NCBI GenBank assembly: GCA_965199715.1 | Contig: OZ241322.1 | Location: 768,001-832,000, forward strand | Direction of reading: 5' to 3' | Origin: Vicinamibacteria bacterium | GTDB lineage: Bacteria > Acidobacteriota > Vicinamibacteria > Marinacidobacterales > Marinacidobacteraceae | DNA length: 64,000 nt | Shown here: one piece after another, positions 6,820 to 16,139 of the stretch | How positions within the stretch are numbered: the stretch's first letter is position 1 | How the letters are laid out: the number at the start of each line of letters is the position of its first letter | Made by a program: the position numbers and the translations under genes | Notes under the pieces: generated by a model | The model's database searches: none | What the model saw: only the letters and a program-made list of their open reading frames with translations | Told to the model about the DNA's origin: nothing

Positions 6820-7820
6820 GCGAACTCGCCATCGGCCCGGTGCGCTGCGCCGCCGGGGGACGGGCCGCCGGATTCGTGCCGGCCATCGAGCGGGTGGACG
6901 GAGCGCCGCTCGGGTTCCCCGTCCTGATCGCCAACGGCGCGAGGCCCGGCCCCACGCTGCTCCTCGACGGCGGCATCCACGGCGACGAGCAGGAGGGGAC
7001 CCTCGCCGTGACCGAGTTCGTCCGGGAAGTCGATCCGACGGCGCTCGCCGGAGCGGTCGTCGCGGTTCCGGTGATGAACACCGGGGCGTTCGAGGCCATG
7101 TCCCGCGGCAACCCCCGCGACACGCACACGTTCGACATGAACCGGATCTACCCCGGACGGGCGAACGGCTACCTCACCGACCGGGTGGCCGCGGTCCACG
7201 CCGAGACCGCCGCCGCCGTCGCCGACGTCGAGATCACGATCCATTCGGGCGGGAACATCTGCTACCTCGGCGAGACGATCTTCACGACTTCGGGCGACCC
7301 GCTGGGGCTCGCGCTCGCGCAAGCCATGGGGCCCGGCTGGGAGATCGTGCTGGACACGCCGCACCCCGCCGGCTCGCCCATGGCGGCGATGACCCCGAGG
7401 GGCAAGGCCGCGATCACGGTCGAGCTCGGCGGCGGCGCGGCGACGATGCCGGGGCGGCTGCGGGAGAACGTCGACGTCCTCAAGCGCGCCGTCCTGAACG
7501 TCTGCCGCCACTACCGGATGCTCGAAGGCGACGCCGCTTACGCGCCGAAGCTCTGGCGCGGACGGCAGAGCGTGGTGATGGCGTCGCGCAGCGGGATCCT
7601 GAGTCCGGGGGCCGGGCTCGCCGGGGAGCGGCTCAAGGAGCCGATCCGCAAGGGCGAGCGGCTGCTGCAGGTCCACGACCTGCTCGGGAACCCGATCGAG
7701 GACCTGAACGCTCCCTGCGACGGGGTGCTCTTCGGCTTCCGCACCTACCCCTCGACGACCGCCGGCGACTGGACGCTGTTCTGCGGCGACGCCGAGTTCG
7801 TGGAGGTCTCGCCCCCGTGA
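6816..7820 (+). CDS. Succinylglutamate desuccinylase/aspartoacylase (M14 AstE/AspA) family protein
   Basis: GIHGDE, DMNRIYPG, IHSG and ITVELGG motifs. ATG at 6816 overlaps the upstream stop (ATGA). Confidence 0.88.
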   Translation: MSELAIGPVRCAAGGRAAGFVPAIERVDGAPLGFPVLIANGARPGPTLLLDGGIHGDEQEGTLAVTEFVREVDPTALAGAVVAVPVMNTGAFEAMSRGNPRDTHTFDMNRIYPGRANGYLTDRVAAVHAETAAAVADVEITIHSGGNICYLGETIFTTSGDPLGLALAQAMGPGWEIVLDTPHPAGSPMAAMTPRGKAAITVELGGGAATMPGRLRENVDVLKRAVLNVCRHYRMLEGDAAYAPKLWRGRQSVVMASRSGILSPGAGLAGERLKEPIRKGERLLQVHDLLGNPIEDLNAPCDGVLFGFRTYPSTTAGDWTLFCGDAEFVEVSPP

Positions 7821-8959
7821 TCTCCACGCCCATCGTGCTGCTCGCGTTCCTGCTGCTGCTGGTGGCGGGGGCCCGCGAGTTCGAGGAGCGGTCGCCGCTC
7901 ATCCAGAAGATCAGCTCGGCGGTCGTCTGCACCCTCGTCGGCATCCTGCTCGCGAACGTCGGAATCCTCCCCCGCGGCGGCGAGTTCATGGACGATATCG
8001 CCCGCTACGCGATCCCGTACGCGATCGTGCTGTTCGTCCTCTCGACGCGCCTCGCCGACCTGAAGAAGGCGGGGCCGCGGATGGTGTTCGGCTTCCTCCT
8101 CGCGGGACTCGGAACCTTCGTCGGAGCGTTCGCCGCGAGCCTGCTCTTCGCCGGGATCCTCGGGGAGGAGACGTGGAAGCTGGGCGGCACGTTCGCCGGG
8201 GCCTTCTGGGGCGGCGGGCTCAACTTCGCAGCGGTGGGCCGGGGGCTCGAGATGACCGAGAGCCTGTTCGCCGGCGCCTTCGTCGTGGACAACCTCTCGA
8301 CCGTGCCGTGGATGCTCGCCCAGGTGGGCCTCGCCTCCGCGCTCGGAGTCACGTTCGCCCGCCGGGCGCTCGCGTCGGGGCCGAGCGAGGACGGGGACGA
8401 CGGCGACGCGCAGGAGCTGCGGAAGACGTGGACCGAAGGGGCGCTGTCGATCACGCACCTCGCGGTGCTCTCGGCGATCCCGCTGCTCGCGCTCGGGGCG
8501 GCCGGAGTCCTCGGCCAGTGGATGCCGGGCGTGCCCGAGGTCCTCTGGCTGACCACGATCGCGCTCGCGCTCGGCCAGGCGCCGGCGATCCAGCGCCTGC
8601 GCGGCGCCGGGATGCTCTCCTACTTCGCCCTCCACATCTTCTTCATCGTGATCGGGGCGGCTTCCGACGTGCGCGAGGTGCTGGCCGCCGGCCCGTGGCT
8701 CTTCCTCTACATGATCCTCATCATCGCGATCCACGCGCTGGTCGTGTACGGGATCGGCTGGCTGGCGCGCTTCGACCTCGCGACGGTGACGCTCGCGAGC
8801 CAGGCCGCGGTCGGCGGTCCGGGGTCGGCGCTCGCGCTCGGCATGGCGCTCAAGTGGAAGGAGCGCATCGCCCCGGCGGTGATCGTGGGCATCTTCGGGT
8901 ACGGGTTCGGGAATTACCTCGGCTTCTCCACGGCGTGGCTGCTGCGCAGCGTCCTCTGA
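7817..8959 (+). CDS. DUF819-family integral membrane protein (probable transporter)
   Basis: About 10 hydrophobic segments; GGGLNFAAV and ASQAAVGGPGSA motifs. GTG at 7817 in a GTGA overlap. Confidence 0.82.
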   Translation: MISTPIVLLAFLLLLVAGAREFEERSPLIQKISSAVVCTLVGILLANVGILPRGGEFMDDIARYAIPYAIVLFVLSTRLADLKKAGPRMVFGFLLAGLGTFVGAFAASLLFAGILGEETWKLGGTFAGAFWGGGLNFAAVGRGLEMTESLFAGAFVVDNLSTVPWMLAQVGLASALGVTFARRALASGPSEDGDDGDAQELRKTWTEGALSITHLAVLSAIPLLALGAAGVLGQWMPGVPEVLWLTTIALALGQAPAIQRLRGAGMLSYFALHIFFIVIGAASDVREVLAAGPWLFLYMILIIAIHALVVYGIGWLARFDLATVTLASQAAVGGPGSALALGMALKWKERIAPAVIVGIFGYGFGNYLGFSTAWLLRSVL

Positions 8960-9651
8960 TCCTCGACGGGACGACGGCGCTCGTGACCGGGGCCGCGCGC
9001 GGGCTCGGGCGGTCCGCCGCCCAGGCGCTCGGGAACGCCGGAGCCTCGCTCACGCTGCTCGACTGCGAGGCGGAGGAACTGGCTTCGGTCGCCCCCGGCG
9101 CGACGCTCGTCGTCTGCGACCTCGCCGACCGGTCGAGCTTCCGGCGGGTCGCCGGCGAGTACGACTTCTTCCTCCACTGCGCCGGAGTCCTCACGCGGAA
9201 GCCGCTCGCCGAGACCTCCGAGGCCGAGTGGGACCGAACGCTGGCGGTGAACCTGACCGCCGCGTTCCTGCTGCTGCGGCAGGTGCAGGCGCGATCGGTG
9301 CTGCTCACCAGCTCTCGCGCCGGAGTGACGGGGTTCGCCGGGGAGACCGCCTACTGTGCCAGCAAGTTCGGCATCGAGGGCCTCGCCCGGTCGCTGGCCG
9401 CCGAACGGCCGGGAACTCCGGTCAACACGATCACTCCGGGCGCACGCATCAAGCCGACCGGCTTGCCGCAGGAGGCACGGGGCTCCTGGGGATCTTCGGA
9501 GCCGCTCGGGCCGGCATTCACCGCCTTCGCGCTGCTCGCCGGTTCGTCCGCTCCGACCGGGCGAAGGTTCCGGGCCGACCGGGTGGCCGAGCGGGTCCGG
9601 CGCGACGGACTGCCGCTTGGAGAAGCGGCTTGGGAGGAACTCGCCGAGTGA
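8956..9651 (+). CDS. Short-chain dehydrogenase/reductase (probable CTG start)
   Basis: TGAARGLG, SSRAG and YCASK motifs. The only start that keeps beta-strand 1 is CTG at 8956, overlapping the upstream TGA. Confidence 0.8.
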   Translation: MILDGTTALVTGAARGLGRSAAQALGNAGASLTLLDCEAEELASVAPGATLVVCDLADRSSFRRVAGEYDFFLHCAGVLTRKPLAETSEAEWDRTLAVNLTAAFLLLRQVQARSVLLTSSRAGVTGFAGETAYCASKFGIEGLARSLAAERPGTPVNTITPGARIKPTGLPQEARGSWGSSEPLGPAFTAFALLAGSSAPTGRRFRADRVAERVRRDGLPLGEAAWEELAE

Positions 9652-11318
9652 GTCATTTCTGTCCGATTCCGGTGGCCGACCGGGCGCAGGCGCTCCCCGA
9701 GCCGGAGCTCCTTCCCGACTCGGCCGCGGTTCTCGCTCCCGAGCACGCCCGGGCGCTGCGGAACGCGCTTCTCGGCGGCGAGACCCACTACACCCCGCGC
9801 CCCGGGCTTCCCGAACTGCGCGAGCGGATCGCCGCGCTCCTCGTCGAGGCGGGAGCTCCGCCGGGCGGGCAGGTGGTCATCACGGCGGGGCGGCAGGAGG
9901 CGCTCTTCGTCGTCCGCGGAGTCGATCCGGTCGTGGACCTCGGCGACCGGTTCCCCGAGGCGGACCTTTCCGGGGTCTCGCCGGACGCCGTGCTGGTCGG
10001 TTCGCTCGACGCCTTCCCCGAGCTGGCCCCGTTTCGGCTCGGATTCTTCCGCTCGCCCGACGCGCTGCTTGCGCGGCTCCGCGGCCTGAAGCAGGCGATC
10101 TCCATTTGCACCGCGGCCCCGTCGCAACGGGCGGCGGCGCTCGTGCTCGGGGCGGAGCGGACGGCGCGTCCGCCGGAGATACGGACGCGGAAGGACGACT
10201 CGCGCTATTCGCTGATGGAACTTGCGGCGCAGATCCCCGACGTGGTGAGCCTCGGGCGGGGCGATCCCGACGCCGACGCCTCGAGAGCCGTCATCGAAGC
10301 GGCCGCCGCGACGCTCGGCGAGACCGAGGCGCTCGATCCGAGGGGGCAGCGCTGGCTGCGGGAGGCCATCGCCGAGCGGGAGGAGGCGCGGATCGGGGTC
10401 CGGTTCGATCCCGACTCCGAGATCGTCGTGACCAACGGCGCGCAGGAGGGGATCACGGTCGCCATGCTGGCGCTGCTGGGCGAGCGCGAGGACGTGATCC
10501 TCGCCGACCCGTACTACACGTCGTACCTTCAGGCCATCGACCTCGCCGGGGGGAAGCCGGCGCTCGTGCCCGCTGCGGGCGGGTCCGATTTCGGGATGCG
10601 CGCGGACGCGGCGACCGAGGCGTTCGGCCGCGCCGAACGGCCGCGCCTGCTCGCGATCGTGAACTTTTCGAATCCGACCGGAGCCCGCACTCGGGCGGAG
10701 GAAGTGCGCGGGCTCGCGGAACTCGCCGATCGCGGGCATCTGTGGGTGCTTTCCGACGAGGTCTATGGGGACATGACGCTCGACGGCGAGGGGCCGATCC
10801 TGTCCCCGGCGACGCTGCCGGGGATGAAGGGCCGGACGCTCACGCTCGGCAGCGTCTCGAAGAGCTACGCGATGACCGGGTTCCGGATCGGCTACCTGAC
10901 CGGCCCCGCCGACGCGATCGCCGCCTGCGCCCGGGTGAAGGCGGCGCTGTCGGGTCCGTCGCCGCTCTTCTCGCAGCGGGCCGCGGCGCTCGCGCTCGGC
11001 GGCGGCGAGGAGTTCCCCGCACGGATGCGCCGCATCTACGCCCCCCGGCGGAAGTTGCTGCTCGACGGTCTCCGTGACCTCGGCATCCCGACCGCCGACC
11101 ACGGGGGCGGATTCTTCGTCTGGGCGGATATCTCCCGCTTCGGGCTTCCGGCCGGGGATTTCTGCCGGCGGCTCCTCATCGAGGCGCGGGTGCTGATGTT
11201 CCCGGGAACCGCATTCGGAGCGCGCTGGGACCGGTACGTCAGGGTCTCGATGCTCCAGACCGAGGAGCGAATCAAGGAAGCGCTGGCGCGGATGAAGACG
11301 TTCGGAGGACGAACATGA
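9648..11318 (+). CDS. Class I/II PLP aminotransferase with a fused N-terminal degenerate aminotransferase half-copy
   Basis: The C-terminal ~370 aa carry NPTG, SDEVY, SVSKSYAMTGFRIGY (Lys codon 10860) and YVRVS. The N-terminal ~180 aa repeat HYTPRPGLPELRERIA, TAGRQEAL and FRLGF but lack the Lys. Confidence 0.88.
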   Translation: MSHFCPIPVADRAQALPEPELLPDSAAVLAPEHARALRNALLGGETHYTPRPGLPELRERIAALLVEAGAPPGGQVVITAGRQEALFVVRGVDPVVDLGDRFPEADLSGVSPDAVLVGSLDAFPELAPFRLGFFRSPDALLARLRGLKQAISICTAAPSQRAAALVLGAERTARPPEIRTRKDDSRYSLMELAAQIPDVVSLGRGDPDADASRAVIEAAAATLGETEALDPRGQRWLREAIAEREEARIGVRFDPDSEIVVTNGAQEGITVAMLALLGEREDVILADPYYTSYLQAIDLAGGKPALVPAAGGSDFGMRADAATEAFGRAERPRLLAIVNFSNPTGARTRAEEVRGLAELADRGHLWVLSDEVYGDMTLDGEGPILSPATLPGMKGRTLTLGSVSKSYAMTGFRIGYLTGPADAIAACARVKAALSGPSPLFSQRAAALALGGGEEFPARMRRIYAPRRKLLLDGLRDLGIPTADHGGGFFVWADISRFGLPAGDFCRRLLIEARVLMFPGTAFGARWDRYVRVSMLQTEERIKEALARMKTFGGRT

Positions 11319-12064
11319 ATCGAATGGAAGGGCGGTGCGCCGTCGTGACCGGCGCGGCCCATGGCATCGGGCGGGCGACCGCCGAGCTGTTCGGCGAGGA
11401 GGGAGCGCGGGTCGTGCTCGCCGACATCGCCGCCGAGGTGACCGAGGTCGCGGCCGGCGTATCCGGAGCGCGGGCGGTGGTCGCCGACGTGTCCACCGAG
11501 GCCGGAGTCGAGGAGGTCGTCGCGACCGCCGAGCGCGCGTTCGGCTCGGTGGAGGCGCTCGTGAACAACGCCGGGGTCGAGCTGAAGAAGCTGGTGGAAG
11601 ACACGAGCCTCGCCGAGTGGGAGCGCGTGCTCCGCGTGAACCTGACCTCGGCGTTCCTGATGTCCCGCCGGGTCGTGCCCGGCATGAAGAAGCAGCGCCG
11701 CGGCGTGATCGTCATGAACTCGTCGGTCGGGAACTTCATCGCCGCGACGAGGAGCTCCGCCTACGGAGCCTCCAAGTCCGGGATGATGGCGCTCGCCCGA
11801 GGTCTGGCGCTCGAGGGCGCGGAGTACGGCATCCGCGTGAACGCGGTCTGCCCCGGAGTCATCGACACGCCGATGAACCAGCGCAACCTCTCCCGCGCCG
11901 ACGATCCCGAAGCGATGCACCGCTCGTGGTACGAGGTCACCCCGCTCGGACGACTCGGCACGGCCCGCGACGTGGCGCAGTCGATCCTGTTCCTTGCGTC
12001 CGACGAATCGTCCTTCGTGACCGGGCTGCCGCTCGTGATCGACGGCGGCCGGCTGATCCAGTAA
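11315..12064 (+). CDS. Short-chain dehydrogenase/reductase (FabG-like)
   Basis: TGAAHGIG, NNAG, YGASK, NAVCPG and IDGG motifs. Confidence 0.93.
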   Translation: MNRMEGRCAVVTGAAHGIGRATAELFGEEGARVVLADIAAEVTEVAAGVSGARAVVADVSTEAGVEEVVATAERAFGSVEALVNNAGVELKKLVEDTSLAEWERVLRVNLTSAFLMSRRVVPGMKKQRRGVIVMNSSVGNFIAATRSSAYGASKSGMMALARGLALEGAEYGIRVNAVCPGVIDTPMNQRNLSRADDPEAMHRSWYEVTPLGRLGTARDVAQSILFLASDESSFVTGLPLVIDGGRLIQ

Positions 12065-12111
12065 CTGGCGAATCCGGTGCTAGGCTCCTCCCCGCTCAGG
12101 AGCGCGACCCA

Positions 12112-12600
12112 GTGACGCACATCCCCCTCTTCTTCCGATTCGAGGAGGACATTCCCGGGCCGGGTTTCGTCGCCAGAGTTCGTTTCTTGGGCCGGGTAAC
12201 CTGCACCCGCGAGTTCGGCTCGACTTGGATGTACGGCGTGAACCCGGGCGCGATCGCCGAGGAGGGAGATGGAATTCGGGCCGCGTACGTGAATTTCAGG
12301 GCGTCACTCACTGAGATCTTTCTTGACTTGGCCGAGGAGTCGTCCGACATCGGGGAGTTCCGTGCGGACGCTCGGTCCTTTTTCGACGCTACCGACGAGA
12401 CGAGCGTTCGCGAATGGGAGTCGGCTCGACAGGCGGTCCGCGCTGGCGAGGAGCCGGGCTTGGATCCCGGATTGACGCTGGATCGGGAAACGGGAGGAAC
12501 GGACGCAGATTTCCAGGTGACCACATCGAGCGGGCCCGCCACGAGTCAAGAGGTGAGATCAACTTCCGAGCGCGAGCCCCGCGCCCTGCTCGCAGCGTAG
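12112..12600 (+). CDS. Hypothetical protein with a HicB-like antitoxin core
   Basis: AGGAG SD then GTG at 12112. WMYGVNPGAIAEEGDGIRAAYVNFRASLTEIFLDL resembles the HicB partial RNase H fold. Codon usage is more A/T-rich than the flanks. Confidence 0.5.
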   Translation: MTHIPLFFRFEEDIPGPGFVARVRFLGRVTCTREFGSTWMYGVNPGAIAEEGDGIRAAYVNFRASLTEIFLDLAEESSDIGEFRADARSFFDATDETSVREWESARQAVRAGEEPGLDPGLTLDRETGGTDADFQVTTSSGPATSQEVRSTSEREPRALLAA

Positions 12601-12892: not shown

Positions 12893-14401
12893 TCAGGCCG
12901 CGTCGCCGACGACGCGCACCCGGACCCGGCGCGCATCTCCCGGGAGGTAGGCGAGCGGCAGGTCCTCGCGCTCGACCATCTCCAGCCGTCCGGCGTCCGC
13001 TCCGGCGGCCGCGGCGCGTTGCTCGGCCTCCTCCGTCGCGAGCCGGAACGCCTCCTCGCGCCCCACTCCGTGAAAGATGCGATCCACCTCGCCGCCAACT
13101 CGGGCGATCGCCGCGCCCACCGCGTTCGCAACCTCGCCCCCGGGAACGCGGACCGTCTCCGACACTCCCTCGAGTTCGTCCGGGACGAGAAACGCGCCGC
13201 CGCCCACGGCGAGCAGCGGACACGCCCGGGCGTCCGGCTTCATCCGGTCCACGGCCTCGCCGATGCGCTCCCGCACGGTCGCCTCGAACCGCCGGACGGT
13301 CGAAGCCGACAATCCCCGCACGCGCTCCGGATCCCCGAGGCGGATCCAGCCGGCCGCGACGCCGAGATCGGTCGCGGTCAGGGTCTCCCCGCCGAAGGCG
13401 AGTCCGCGCTTCGGCAGCCGGAACCCGACGCTCGCAGGCCCCACCGCCGCCCCGTCCGCCGTCGCGAGGCTCCCGCCGCCGAGCGCGATCGAGAGCAGGT
13501 CGGGCATCCGGAACAAGGTCCGCACGCCGCCGACCTCGACCTCGCGCGGCGCTTCGCGGGGGAACCCGGCCCGAAGCGCTCCCACGTCGGTGGTCGTGCC
13601 GCCGACGTCCACGACGACCGCGTCGGTCGCGCCCGTGAGAAACGACGCGCCGGTCATCGAGTTCACCGGACCGGACGAGATGCTCAGCACCGGCGCCTCG
13701 GCGGCCGCCTCGACGCTCGCGATCGTCCCGTCGTTGCGGGCGAGGAAGAGCGGCGCCCCGGCGATCCCGGCGAAGGCGCCGGCGAGGCGGCGGGCGAGCG
13801 GCCGCAGCGCCGCGTTCAGGAGACCCGCGTTCTCGCGTCCAAGCAGGCCGATCCGTCCGAGTCGGCGCGACTCGGTGATCGAGGCGTCCGGGTGCTCCTC
13901 GCGCAGGATCTCGGCCGCCCGCGCCTCGCCGCCGCCGTCGAGCGGCGAGAACACCGCGCTGACCGCGATCTCCCGGATCCCGGCTTCCCGGATCGCGCGC
14001 CCGGCGCGGGCGACCGCGCGCTCGGCGAGCGGGACGATCGGGCGGCCGTCGCACTCGTGCCCGCCCTCGACCATGAACACGGGCCCCCGCACGATCTCCC
14101 GCAGGCCCTCGGGCCAGTCGCAAAACGGCGGCAGCGACGCGCTCGCCGGGAGCCCGACCCGCAGCGCCGCGACGCGCTCGAGCCCCTCGCCGGTCAGCAC
14201 CGCGTTCGTGAAGTGCGTCGTCCCGATCACGACCCGGGACGCGGGCCCCTCCCCCACTCCGGCGAGCGCCGTCCGGACGCCTTCGAGCACGTCGGGCGTG
14301 GTCTCGGTCTTGGAGCTGCGCAGCGCTTCCGCGCCGCGCATCCGGACCGCGTCGGTGTGCGTGCCGCCGACGTCCACGCCGATCCGGTCGCGGGGGCTCA
14401 T
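12893..14401 (-). CDS. Hydantoinase A/oxoprolinase family protein (ASKHA ATPase)
   Basis: IGVDVGGTHTD, GTTHFTNA, SGPVNS, DVGGTTTD and ANAVGAA motifs. ATG at 14401 overlaps the DUF917 stop. Confidence 0.92.
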   Translation of the reverse strand: MSPRDRIGVDVGGTHTDAVRMRGAEALRSSKTETTPDVLEGVRTALAGVGEGPASRVVIGTTHFTNAVLTGEGLERVAALRVGLPASASLPPFCDWPEGLREIVRGPVFMVEGGHECDGRPIVPLAERAVARAGRAIREAGIREIAVSAVFSPLDGGGEARAAEILREEHPDASITESRRLGRIGLLGRENAGLLNAALRPLARRLAGAFAGIAGAPLFLARNDGTIASVEAAAEAPVLSISSGPVNSMTGASFLTGATDAVVVDVGGTTTDVGALRAGFPREAPREVEVGGVRTLFRMPDLLSIALGGGSLATADGAAVGPASVGFRLPKRGLAFGGETLTATDLGVAAGWIRLGDPERVRGLSASTVRRFEATVRERIGEAVDRMKPDARACPLLAVGGGAFLVPDELEGVSETVRVPGGEVANAVGAAIARVGGEVDRIFHGVGREEAFRLATEEAEQRAAAAGADAGRLEMVEREDLPLAYLPGDARRVRVRVVGDAA

Positions 14402-15471
14402 GCGAACAGCGGGCGGAAATCGAGGTCGAAGCCGAACGCCCGCGGCCCGACCCGGCGGAGCGCGGCCTCGGACTTGAGGACGCTGGGAGCGTCGAGCGCG
14501 AGCACGCGGACCCGCTGGCCGTAGCCGATGACCTCGGTCCCGAGCGCCTCGCCGGTGTTCGTATCGACCACGCAGAGGATCTCGGGGGTCGTCGCGACGG
14601 GCTCGCCGTCCCGGAACGCGACCGCGAACTCGTTGCGGAAGTGGAGCTCCAGCTCGCTTCCCCGGTCGGGGCCGAGCCCGGCGATCCGGGCCGACCCCTT
14701 GAGGAACCCGCGCGTCGTGCGCCGGTCGATGTCCGCCACCTTGCCGGTGAACAGCAGCAGGCCGCGCTCGCGCCCGAGGATCGCCGCCACCGGGTCCTCG
14801 CCGGCGCGGCGCGCCGCCCGGACCGCCGCGCCGATCCCGATGGCGCGGGAGACCGATCCCAGCACCGCGTGGTCCTTGATCTCGCGCCCGGTGCGCGGCG
14901 CCTTCGCAGTGGCCGCGATCGAGCCGACCTCGGTGACCGCGACCCGGCCGAGCCGCTCCTGCCACTCCCAGCTCGCCGCCCGGTCCACGATCACCACGTT
15001 GTCGCGCACGTCCACGAGGCAAGACGGCCAGTTGCGCAGCTCGGCGATCGCGAACGTCGTCATCTGCGCTTCGGGGAACGCCCGCCCCATGCAGTCGGCG
15101 TCCACCACCGGGAGACCGGTTCGCGCCGCGACCATGAAGCTCTGGAGCGCGTTCGAGCCCCCGATCTCGAGCGACATCACCGCGGCGAAACGCTTCCCCA
15201 GGCGCTCCTCGAGCGCGCGCACCGGCTTCGCGGCGATCTCCGGGTCGGGCAGCCGCTCCTCCCCGACGAGCGGCGCGCCCATGGTCGAGACCACGGCGAC
15301 CAGGTTCTCGTCGCCGAGTTCGGACGCGGAGAGGAGGGTCGGCTCGAATCCGCGGGCGGTCTCGATCCGCAGGTTCAACAGCGAATGCGCGGGGTTGCCG
15401 CCGCCCCCGGCCCCGAGAACCCACGCGCCGACGGCGAGATCCTCGATCTCCTCGGGAGCGAGCCGGCGCAT
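14398..15471 (-). CDS. DUF917-family protein (family includes thiohydantoin desulfurases)
   Basis: LGAGGGG, MGAP, EIGGSN, DADCMGRAFPE, NEF and PEILC motifs. Coupled to the hydantoinase gene, the typical pairing. Confidence 0.88.
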   Translation of the reverse strand: MRRLAPEEIEDLAVGAWVLGAGGGGNPAHSLLNLRIETARGFEPTLLSASELGDENLVAVVSTMGAPLVGEERLPDPEIAAKPVRALEERLGKRFAAVMSLEIGGSNALQSFMVAARTGLPVVDADCMGRAFPEAQMTTFAIAELRNWPSCLVDVRDNVVIVDRAASWEWQERLGRVAVTEVGSIAATAKAPRTGREIKDHAVLGSVSRAIGIGAAVRAARRAGEDPVAAILGRERGLLLFTGKVADIDRRTTRGFLKGSARIAGLGPDRGSELELHFRNEFAVAFRDGEPVATTPEILCVVDTNTGEALGTEVIGYGQRVRVLALDAPSVLKSEAALRRVGPRAFGFDLDFRPLFA

Positions 15472-15480
15472 CGGGCGGCC

Positions 15481-15490
15481 ATGCTACCTT
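15481..15490. promoter_or_regulatory. Overlapping back-to-back -10 elements (bidirectional, leaderless-type promoter)
   Basis: ATGCTACCTT. Plus strand: TGcTACCTT lies 7 nt before the AroM GTG. Minus strand: TAGCAT lies 9 nt before the DUF917 ATG. The gap is only 26 bp and has no SD. Confidence 0.55.
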
Positions 15491-15497
15491 CCGGCGG

Positions 15498-16139
15498 GTG
15501 CTCCACTTCCTCACCATCGGACAGGCGCCGAGGCCGGACGCGACCCCCGAGATCCTCGAGTTCATGGGGATCGAAGACGGGCCGGTCGTCGAGGCGGGCG
15601 CGCTCGACGGGTTGGACCGGTCCGGGATCCCCGCGCCCGAATCCGGAGACATGCCGCTCGTCACCCGGCTCGCGAGCGGGGAGGAGGTCCTCGTCGGCGA
15701 GAGCTTCATCGAGCGGCGGATGCGGGCGCTCGTGGATCGGGTTCCGCCCGGCGACGCGGCGGCGATCCTGTGCACCGGTCCCTTTCCCGGGATCCCGGAG
15801 CGGCCCGGGCTCGTGAAGGCGGGGCCGGAGTTCGACCGCGCGCTCGCCGCCGCGTGCTCCCCCGGCATGTCGGTCTCGATCCTGATCCCCGATCCGGGGC
15901 AGGAGGAGGACGCCCGGCGCCGGGTTCCGGCGGGCTGCCGCGTCCTCGTCGGGGTGGGCTCGCCCTACTCGGACGACGCCGACTGGCTCCCCGACGGGTT
16001 CGGCGACGCGGACCTGGTCGCGCTCAACTGCCTCGGCTACGACGGCCGCATGGAGCGCGCGCTCGCCGCCGCGACCGGCAAGCGGATCCTGCTGGCCCGC
16101 CGGGTGCTCGCGGAGCGGCTCGCCGAGGCGGCGGCGTGA
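15498..16139 (+). CDS. AroM-family protein
   Basis: TIGQAPRPD, LVTRLASG, ILCTG, SPY and LNCLGY motifs typical of AroM. Confidence 0.85.
   Translation: MLHFLTIGQAPRPDATPEILEFMGIEDGPVVEAGALDGLDRSGIPAPESGDMPLVTRLASGEEVLVGESFIERRMRALVDRVPPGDAAAILCTGPFPGIPERPGLVKAGPEFDRALAAACSPGMSVSILIPDPGQEEDARRRVPAGCRVLVGVGSPYSDDADWLPDGFGDADLVALNCLGYDGRMERALAAATGKRILLARRVLAERLAEAAA

Follow-up and report, generated by a model that had tools for sequence, protein, structure and literature searches.

Fold-type I pyridoxal phosphate (PLP) enzymes are obligate dimers, and their active sites borrow residues from the neighbouring subunit. The open reading frame (ORF) described here lies in a stretch of 64,000 nucleotides from a Vicinamibacteria bacterium (contig OZ241322.1 of assembly GCA_965199715.1, forward-strand positions 768,001 to 832,000); this whole stretch is called the window, and all coordinates count from its first letter. 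The ORF joins two copies of a class I aminotransferase in one chain, a shrunken copy without the PLP lysine (N-module) followed by a complete copy (C-module), and the two probably build a single active site together. Its features are listed below, where pLDDT is the predicted local distance difference test score of an AlphaFold2 (AF2) model.

9648..11318, + strand: whole ORF (P0001), 556 residues, from GTG 9648 to TGA 11316-11318; the GTG overlaps the stop of the upstream short-chain dehydrogenase (SDR) gene (GTGA).
9634..9638, + strand: Shine-Dalgarno-like GGAGG, 9 nt 5' of the GTG start.
9648..10151, + strand: N-module, residues 1-168, a Lys-less, internally deleted and C-terminally truncated remnant of a class I aminotransferase large domain; AF2 pLDDT ~89-96 in the full chain.
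9777..9818, + strand: Tyr loop of the N-module, G44-L57 (GETHYTPRPGLPEL); Tyr48 is TAC 9789-9791.
9999..10046, + strand: remnant of the PLP-lysine strand, residues 118-133 (GSLDAFPELAPFRLGF), with Ala122 at the Lys position and the Arg266 equivalent R130 kept.
10089..10130, + strand: second interface loop, K148-R161 (KQAISICTAAPSQR), with K148, Q149, A150, S152, I153, C154, P158, S159, Q160 and R161 invariant in 11 N-modules.
10152..10196, + strand: linker, residues 169-183, variable in length and sequence in the alignment; pLDDT blocks 61 and 69.
10197..11315, + strand: C-module, residues 184-556, a complete class I aminotransferase from the conserved DDSRYSLMELAA arm onwards; PF00155 E 7.4e-60.
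10317..10349, + strand: C-module loop at the place of the Tyr70 loop, residues 224-234 (GETEALDPRGQ), without Tyr.
10860..10862, + strand: Lys405 (AAG), the PLP Schiff-base lysine of the C-module.

A single frame runs uninterrupted from the N-module through the linker of about 15 residues into the C-module. The TGA of the upstream gene at 9649-9651 overlaps the GTG at 9648, and the starts of homologous proteins, which begin with M(N/T)HFCPIPV, align with this GTG. ATG 10215 encodes Met190, an internal conserved methionine of the DDSRYSLMELAA arm and not a start; no Shine-Dalgarno sequence precedes it, and the C genes of relatives with split halves start upstream of the equivalent methionine. 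The same unbroken fusion occurs in 25 independent metagenome-assembled genome (MAG) records, and a DNA contig from a second study spans 9300-10415 with 15 substitutions and no insertion or deletion (indel). On this agreement, the frame is not an assembly artefact. Consistently, the public contigs of four sequencing runs show no indel within the ORF, and internal stops are found in none of the 12 loci examined, TGA codons flagged in a first scan being the terminal stops. Contigs from two RNA libraries span 9639-10072 and 10052-10232, the second crossing the junction between the two modules, and give only a hint that the ORF is expressed. Contigs joining 9405 to 10620 (one each in runs X1 and X4) have only 22 letters on one side and were treated as unrelated.

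The N-module retains HYTPRPGLPELRERIA at residues 47-62, which contains Tyr48, together with TAGRQEAL at residues 79-86 and ICTAAPSQRAA at residues 153-163, and the C-module carries ETEALDPRGQRWLREAIA at residues 225-242 and its lysine strand GSVSKSYAMTGFRIGY at residues 401-416. The original prediction, made from the letters of the window, had described a shrunken and a full aminotransferase copy in one frame, and every motif and coordinate that it quoted for them is correct. Pfam family PF00155 matches the first 189 residues with E 6.1e-4 and 19.5 bits, just below the cut-off of 19.7. NCBIfam models match the N part in collinear pieces with E ~3e-10, residues ~41-89 corresponding to profile positions ~26-76 and residues ~110-167 to positions ~225-282. 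The N part also aligns with the C part around the lysine strand (BLASTP, 22/65 identities, E 5e-6), and a profile of 11 N-modules matches class I aminotransferases among PDB sequences with E 1.8e-14 and weaker. These sequence comparisons show that the N part and aminotransferases are homologous beyond chance similarity. What is left is a large domain with an internal gap of about 105 profile positions (roughly 110-215, the part bearing NPTG), and the small domain (after ~285) is gone. Judged by this content, the N-module is homologous to class I/II aminotransferases but is not an enzyme, with neither a PLP lysine nor complete domains.

The C-module has the fold and the same-subunit residues of ordinary homodimeric class I aminotransferases such as 1gd9, 1bjw, 2o0r and 4my5 (TMt ~0.9, VIA Z 45.2-32.5). 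PF00155 matches it with 203.5 bits against the cut-off of 19.7, residues 198-548 covering profile positions 2-360 of 361. A Foldseek comparison matches 1gd9_A with E 7e-31 and TMt 0.90, and VIA aligns 382 residues with 4my5_A (Z 45.2, root-mean-square deviation (rmsd) 3.0). In an alignment with ordinary aminotransferases the same-subunit catalytic set is complete, comprising the PLP Lys, Asn, Asp, Tyr, the phosphate Arg and the alpha-carboxylate Arg. Beyond the lysine, we take these residues to be the equivalents of Asn194, Asp222, Tyr225, Arg266 (phosphate) and Arg386 (carboxylate) in the numbering of aspartate aminotransferase (AspAT). The loop equivalent to the Tyr70 loop is 1-2 residues shorter than in paralogues of the same genome, and the alignment shows that these paralogues and an ordinary aminotransferase retain Tyr there. 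Ordinary homodimers have two active sites, each completed by the Tyr of the partner, whereas the C-module lacks this Tyr and has a dead partner in cis. None of the NCBIfam equivalog cut-offs is reached by the C-module alone (best GntC, 229.9 against 415, and PRK07777, 229.8 against 553), and no specific substrate can therefore be assigned.

This division of residues between the halves is conserved. Residues 1-200, used as the query of a word-index search, retrieved 81 proteins, mostly of 560-673 residues, and 70 of them were aligned with the window protein to give 71 rows. Tyr48 and His47 of the N-module are present in 70 of the 71 fused homologues, the remaining row being truncated at the N-terminus, and R130 is likewise present in 70. 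The Lys position of the N-module is occupied by Gly in 66, Ala in 4 and Trp in 1 of the rows, and never by Lys. By contrast, K405, R413, R532, N342, D370 and Y373 of the C-module are found in all 71, and not one of the 71 has a Tyr in C-module loop 222-236. The Tyr/Lys complementarity and the fused architecture that the original prediction drew from one sequence thus extend to all 71 aligned proteins, with Tyr in 70 N-modules and one truncated row, none in the C loops and Lys only in the C-modules, and the architecture is found at 25 genome loci. In a set of 11 fused and split N-modules, Tyr48 is invariant and the Lys absent in every one. Across 11 genome pairs, the ratio of nonsynonymous to synonymous substitution rates (dN/dS; Nei-Gojobori) lies at 0.11-0.32 in the N-module, compared with 0.08-0.22 in the C-module. 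In the strain of the second study, all 6 substitutions in the N-module fall on third codon positions, and the only residue changes are I7M and D93E.

In related lineages the two halves are encoded by separate genes. Six order-level relatives carry the N-module as a gene of its own, which ends a few residues past SIC(T/S)xxPSQRAAL and is directly followed by a C-type gene, usually in a different frame; a seventh relative has N and C in a common frame, separated by a TGA. The split partner genes of these relatives encode 153 to ~257 residues. A genome scan with one genome per species classified 61 loci. The halves are fused at 25 of them, all in Vicinamibacteria or Candidatus Marinacidobacterium-type MAGs, and split at 22, where the N gene lies directly upstream of the C-type gene in Marinacidobacterales, Vicinamibacterales, other Acidobacteriota and Gemmatimonadota. 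The rest comprise 3 loci at a contig edge, 2 missed by the pattern and 9 ordinary aminotransferases of other phyla. Inspection by eye found no Tyr between the GDPD motif and G-x-x-x-LR in the adjacent C genes of the scanned loci. As far as gene organization can tell, this pattern implies a physical partnership of the halves. The proposal that the N-module is a partner module is supported by its conservation, by the purifying selection on it and by its occurrence as a separate adjacent gene.

A quick maximum-likelihood tree of 62 C-modules, with a midpoint root used for drawing only, requires at least two fusion events. The 26 fused rows that include the window protein group in a single clade (SH-aLRT 100) that is embedded in split forms, and a second fused clade (P0130 and P0153) lies among pairs with full-length partners. 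Reduction has also occurred independently, in that partners of 150-153 residues (including P0109) and the 168-residue module both lack the middle region and keep the same two loops. The extent of reduction varies among close relatives as well. A locus of the same genus (L002, genome G001) has an N-module without the first ~27 residues, and hence without the HFCPIPV arm, and shares the large middle deletion of the window protein. Two others of the genus (L003 in G003 and L004 in G002) retain 30-40 more residues, and N-modules in other genera of the family retain 65-85 more. From these lengths, reduction of the N-module appears to be ongoing.

Among 1.84 billion representatives, a profile search recovered 4601 matches with E <= 1e-3, 64 of them with E <= 1e-30. 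The best 150 of the 4601 are mostly stand-alone proteins of 120-290 residues, with only four full fusions (616-655 residues), and the short stand-alone genes are labelled 'aspartate/methionine/tyrosine aminotransferase' or 'hypothetical protein' in their sources. A short Lys-less paralogue stands beside a complete aminotransferase in at least 32 metagenome pairs. Among 45 metagenome loci with the partner motif, 32 have the downstream aminotransferase gene, 9 have less than 600 nt of contig left and 4 have 600-700 nt. Classification of these loci by pattern is noisy, short partners often escaping the anchor pattern, and pair counts were used instead.

Two further arrangements were seen among the metagenome loci. 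Several loci in the range L113-L161 (for example L117, L121, L131, L133, L137, L139, L140 and L161) carry full-length Lys-less genes of ~375-430 residues, measured from stop to stop. These genes keep the GETHYT loop, have A, D, H, E or S in place of the Lys, and are each followed after 27-65 nt by a class I aminotransferase gene that has the Lys and lacks the Tyr. By their gene order and residues, these pairs look like an earlier stage of the same partnership. At L116, L136, L138, L143 and L150, tandem pairs retain Lys and Tyr together in the upstream gene; the second gene of the pair carries Lys, and its loop reads DHYTHP in L116 and DHATHP in L136 and L143. Such tandem pairs are possible intermediates that precede loss of the partner lysine.

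Structure prediction places the two modules face to face. The AF2 model of the full chain, built with the 71-row alignment, is one compact body (pLDDT 88.4, predicted template modelling (pTM) score 0.91), and confidence is low only in residues 1-4, the linker and residues 341-344. When the C-module (residues 181-556) with PLP and the N-module (residues 1-175) were given as a complex, ipSAE was 0.95 in each of three runs and 0.00 in the best of three controls; in calibration, 58 of 80 solved complexes and 2 of 110 mismatched pairs reached the ipSAE mark. The contacts of the runs agree to at least 96%, and the pLDDT of the partner is at least 90. In the predicted complex, the N-module docks against the canonical dimer face (C-module residues 263-278, 408-413 and 426-445). 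The predicted interface is pseudo-twofold, N150-159 lying against C411-413 and C439-442 against N128-130, where C411-413 is the G-F-R strand, which contributes the phosphate-binding Arg, and N128-130 is the equivalent strand of the N-module. N150-159 contacts C439-442 as well, and N46-49 (T-H-Y-T) and the N-terminal arm (residues 5-29) also belong to the predicted interface. In AspAT, Tyr70 and Arg266 from different subunits both bind the PLP phosphate (PMC6612543, PMC6715241). The model of the complex is in line with the original prediction that the N-module packs at the dimer interface, with both the Tyr loop and the SICTAAPSQR loop placed there. The suggestion that the N-module supplies only trans elements is too narrow, since the module also keeps a four-strand core, R130 (70/71) and an N-terminal arm that lies in the predicted interface.

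It is probable that the ORF encodes an obligate single-chain pseudo-heterodimer of the class I (AspAT-like) fold with one active site per chain. The N-module would derive from a second, tandem aminotransferase gene that shed the PLP lysine and the small domain and, within this genus, also most of the central part of the large domain. Only the parts at the dimer face, namely the N-terminal arm, the Tyr loop and the KQAISICTAAPSQR loop, would have been retained. The C-module would be the sole catalytic unit, lacking the Tyr that in homodimers crosses from the partner subunit to the PLP phosphate, and the short linker would let the N-module fold back onto it and complete one active site in each chain. 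This reading is based on homology, conservation, purifying selection, the distribution of split and fused forms and the complementary residue pattern; from these we infer that Tyr48 contacts the PLP phosphate, that activity is present only with the N-module, and the stoichiometry.

Related principles are known from other fold-type I enzymes. SerTA (Ser4/Ser5) of Serratia sp. ATCC 39006 pairs a short (~210 residues), Lys-less paralogue consisting of the large domain only with a complete one encoded in tandem (PMC11726168). The heterodimeric unit has a single active site, and its activity requires residues of the dead subunit, which contribute to holding the PLP phosphate; SerTA is a heterotetramer, a dimer of heterodimers, and its authors, writing in 2024, present theirs as the first study of a heterooligomeric aminotransferase (PMC11726168). 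The tandem of a short Lys-less gene and a complete gene matches the split relatives found here (22 loci), and a physical pairing of the two modules is predicted for the window protein. SerTA is a member of the sugar-aminotransferase (GDP-perosamine-synthase-like) branch with a role in a carrier-protein pathway, whereas the family described here falls into class I (PF00155, AspAT-like). The matches of both modules are confined to class I families, neither being a member of the DegT/perosamine-synthase-like branch, and the 58 PDB sequences that the N-module profile matches include no SerTA chain. The latter suggests that the two probably arose independently. SerTA is also encoded by two genes, whereas the window has one chain, and the partner here can be smaller (150-168 residues).

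The glycine decarboxylase P-protein (GcvP/GLDC), also of fold-type I, has a Lys-less N half and a catalytic C half, either as alpha and beta subunits or as a single chain, and the single-chain form is modelled as an alpha2 dimer (PMC7259800). It resembles the window family in the order of a dead N half and an active C half in one polypeptide, with split orthologues elsewhere. It differs in family and reaction and in having two full-size halves (~450-500 residues), whereas the dead half is about a third of that size here. The best 50 VIA matches of the whole model are single aminotransferase-type chains and include no P-protein, an absence that is uninformative at this depth. The LCB1 subunit of serine palmitoyltransferase (SPT) lacks the PLP lysine. 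SPT occurs as LCB1/LCB2 and as a single-chain coccolithovirus enzyme, a catalytic subunit with a paralogous partner in split and fused genes (PMC5371807). Unlike the window enzyme, SPT is a membrane-associated alpha-oxoamine synthase of eukaryotes or viruses rather than a transaminase, and the partner subunit is of full size. The remark in the original prediction that no description of the architecture was known overstates its novelty, since the principle is published for other fold-type I families. A literature search that covered few subscription journals and no supplements found no heteromeric or single-chain class I aminotransferase, nor any single-chain aminotransferase. Within the literature searched, the present case is the first of class I and the first in a single chain, with an unusually small partner and a reductive series.

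The same components could be arranged differently. The N-module of one chain might pair with the C-module of another, so that the enzyme would be a domain-swapped dimer or a dimer of pseudo-dimers instead of the monomer that the original prediction had proposed. SerTA and the single-chain P-protein both form higher assemblies, and the linker is short (~15 residues) and of low confidence, but the single AF2 chain is compact with a pTM of 0.91 and intramolecular docking is therefore sterically possible; pairing between chains is considered unlikely. It is more doubtful still that the C-modules homodimerize in the normal way and carry the N-module as an accessory domain outside the active site, serving regulation or the docking of an SDR or a substrate carrier. 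The conserved neighbour SDR1 is fused to the N-module in one protein (P0072, described below), and the short subunit of SerTA has also been proposed to bind a carrier protein (PMC11726168). The predicted interface between N- and C-module, however, occupies the canonical dimer face of the C-module, and the trans Tyr is absent from all 71 C-modules and kept in 70 of the 71 N-modules, so that a C-module homodimer would have no such Tyr at either site. That the N part is the decaying remnant of a duplicate, in frame by chance in a GC-rich genome with the true start at ATG 10215, fits the long spurious frames common in GC-rich DNA, the heavy deletion of the N part and its Pfam score just below the cut-off, but is very unlikely given the low dN/dS, the motifs invariant across fused and split forms, the 25 fused loci without an internal stop, the agreement of contigs, and a start at 9648 that has GGAGG and matches homologue starts where ATG 10215 has no Shine-Dalgarno sequence and is an internal Met.

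Several points weigh against the single-chain pseudo-heterodimer. The second loop of the C-module is still conserved, S435, F441, S442, Q443 and R444 being nearly invariant. The 'complementary degeneration' of the original prediction therefore holds in part: the N-module lost the Lys and the C-module the Tyr, but the C-module lost nothing else and keeps its own second loop, so the degeneration of the halves is not fully complementary. One fused homologue (P0122, 616 residues) has Cys in place of the Tyr, its N-module reading GETECS; it is possibly a decayed or misassembled member, and its junction lacks the DSRYSLMELA/GRGDPD arm. The pass of the predicted complex may reflect the model's memory of solved aminotransferase homodimers, and the run used a custom alignment and a riding ligand, which departs from the conditions of the calibration. 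Folded alone, the N-module is mediocre (AF2 pLDDT 70.3). Its arms at residues 1-50 and 156-169 are then of low confidence and become confident in the full chain, alignment depth differing between the two models (11 against 71 rows). Foldseek with the N-module alone gives no PDB match at E <= 1e-3 (best 6l1l_A, 5e-3); the top rows are all fold-type I aminotransferases with high rmsd. A 476-residue version from another assembly (P0004) is 100% identical through ...AALSGPS and then continues in another frame (window ~10950-11077), and this one-base indel late in the C-module is either an assembly error or a broken allele. RNA libraries can contain DNA, and the RNA contigs are for that reason weak evidence of expression.

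With slightly more confidence than doubt, the window gene can be placed as the most reduced single-chain member of a widespread and unrecognized family of obligate heteromeric class I aminotransferases, in which a Tyr-less catalytic subunit needs a Lys-less paralogue. The reductive series preserved in such a family would run from tandem pairs with the Lys in both genes, through dead full-length partners (~375-390 residues) and partners without the small domain (~205-280 residues), to the minimal partner of 150 residues, with at least two independent fusions. It would extend SerTA, the sole case studied experimentally, to a second, unrelated branch that is common in Acidobacteriota and Gemmatimonadota, and would show how little structure the 'second subunit' has to contribute in fold-type I catalysis. 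A neighbour cut down to ~170 residues (150 in split relatives) and then fused would reveal which portions of that subunit are indispensable. The pattern would also represent subfunctionalization after tandem duplication, the Tyr being lost in one copy and the Lys in the other, and the protein may offer a scaffold for monomeric or single-site transaminases in biocatalysis. Annotation would need correction, the short partner genes being currently named as ordinary or partial aminotransferases.

The genes around the ORF are the following.

7700..8959 (start approximate), + strand: DUF819 membrane protein, PF05684 E 1.1e-55, a synteny-conserved neighbour.
8950..9651 (start approximate), + strand: SDR1, the upstream short-chain dehydrogenase, PF00106 E 1.8e-27, synteny-conserved.
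11315..12064, + strand: SDR2, downstream, PF13561 E 4.9e-64, overlapping the aminotransferase stop by ATGA.

Members of the family and order-level relatives share the cassette DUF819 - SDR1 - N - C, whereas conservation of SDR2 is limited to the genus and a single order-level relative. Protein P0072 (locus L045) joins SDR1, N-module and C-module in one chain of 925 residues (PF00106/PF13561/PF08659 and PF00155), which speaks for joint action of the SDR and the aminotransferase. In NCBIfam, SDR1 and SDR2 have generic matches only, below the equivalog cut-offs, and DUF819 and the ORF at 12106-12597 have no match. The substrate is most likely an alpha-amino or alpha-keto acid because the alpha-carboxylate Arg is retained in the sequence. 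The aminotransferase probably works with the co-transcribed SDR and the DUF819 membrane protein, and a coupled conversion of hydroxy acid, keto acid and amino acid may be guessed. At window position 11437, within SDR2, one base is absent in one RNA-library contig (run X7, depth 3.5), which may be an error. The ORF at 12106-12597 (+ strand, 164 residues), downstream of SDR2, belongs to no Pfam or NCBIfam family and is kept in two genomes of the same genus with 51-66% identity. Farther downstream, the first ~490 residues of the ORF at 12893-15868 (- strand) have no assigned domain and may be a spurious GC-rich extension, and its C-terminal half contains hydantoinase/oxoprolinase domains (PF05378, PF01968).

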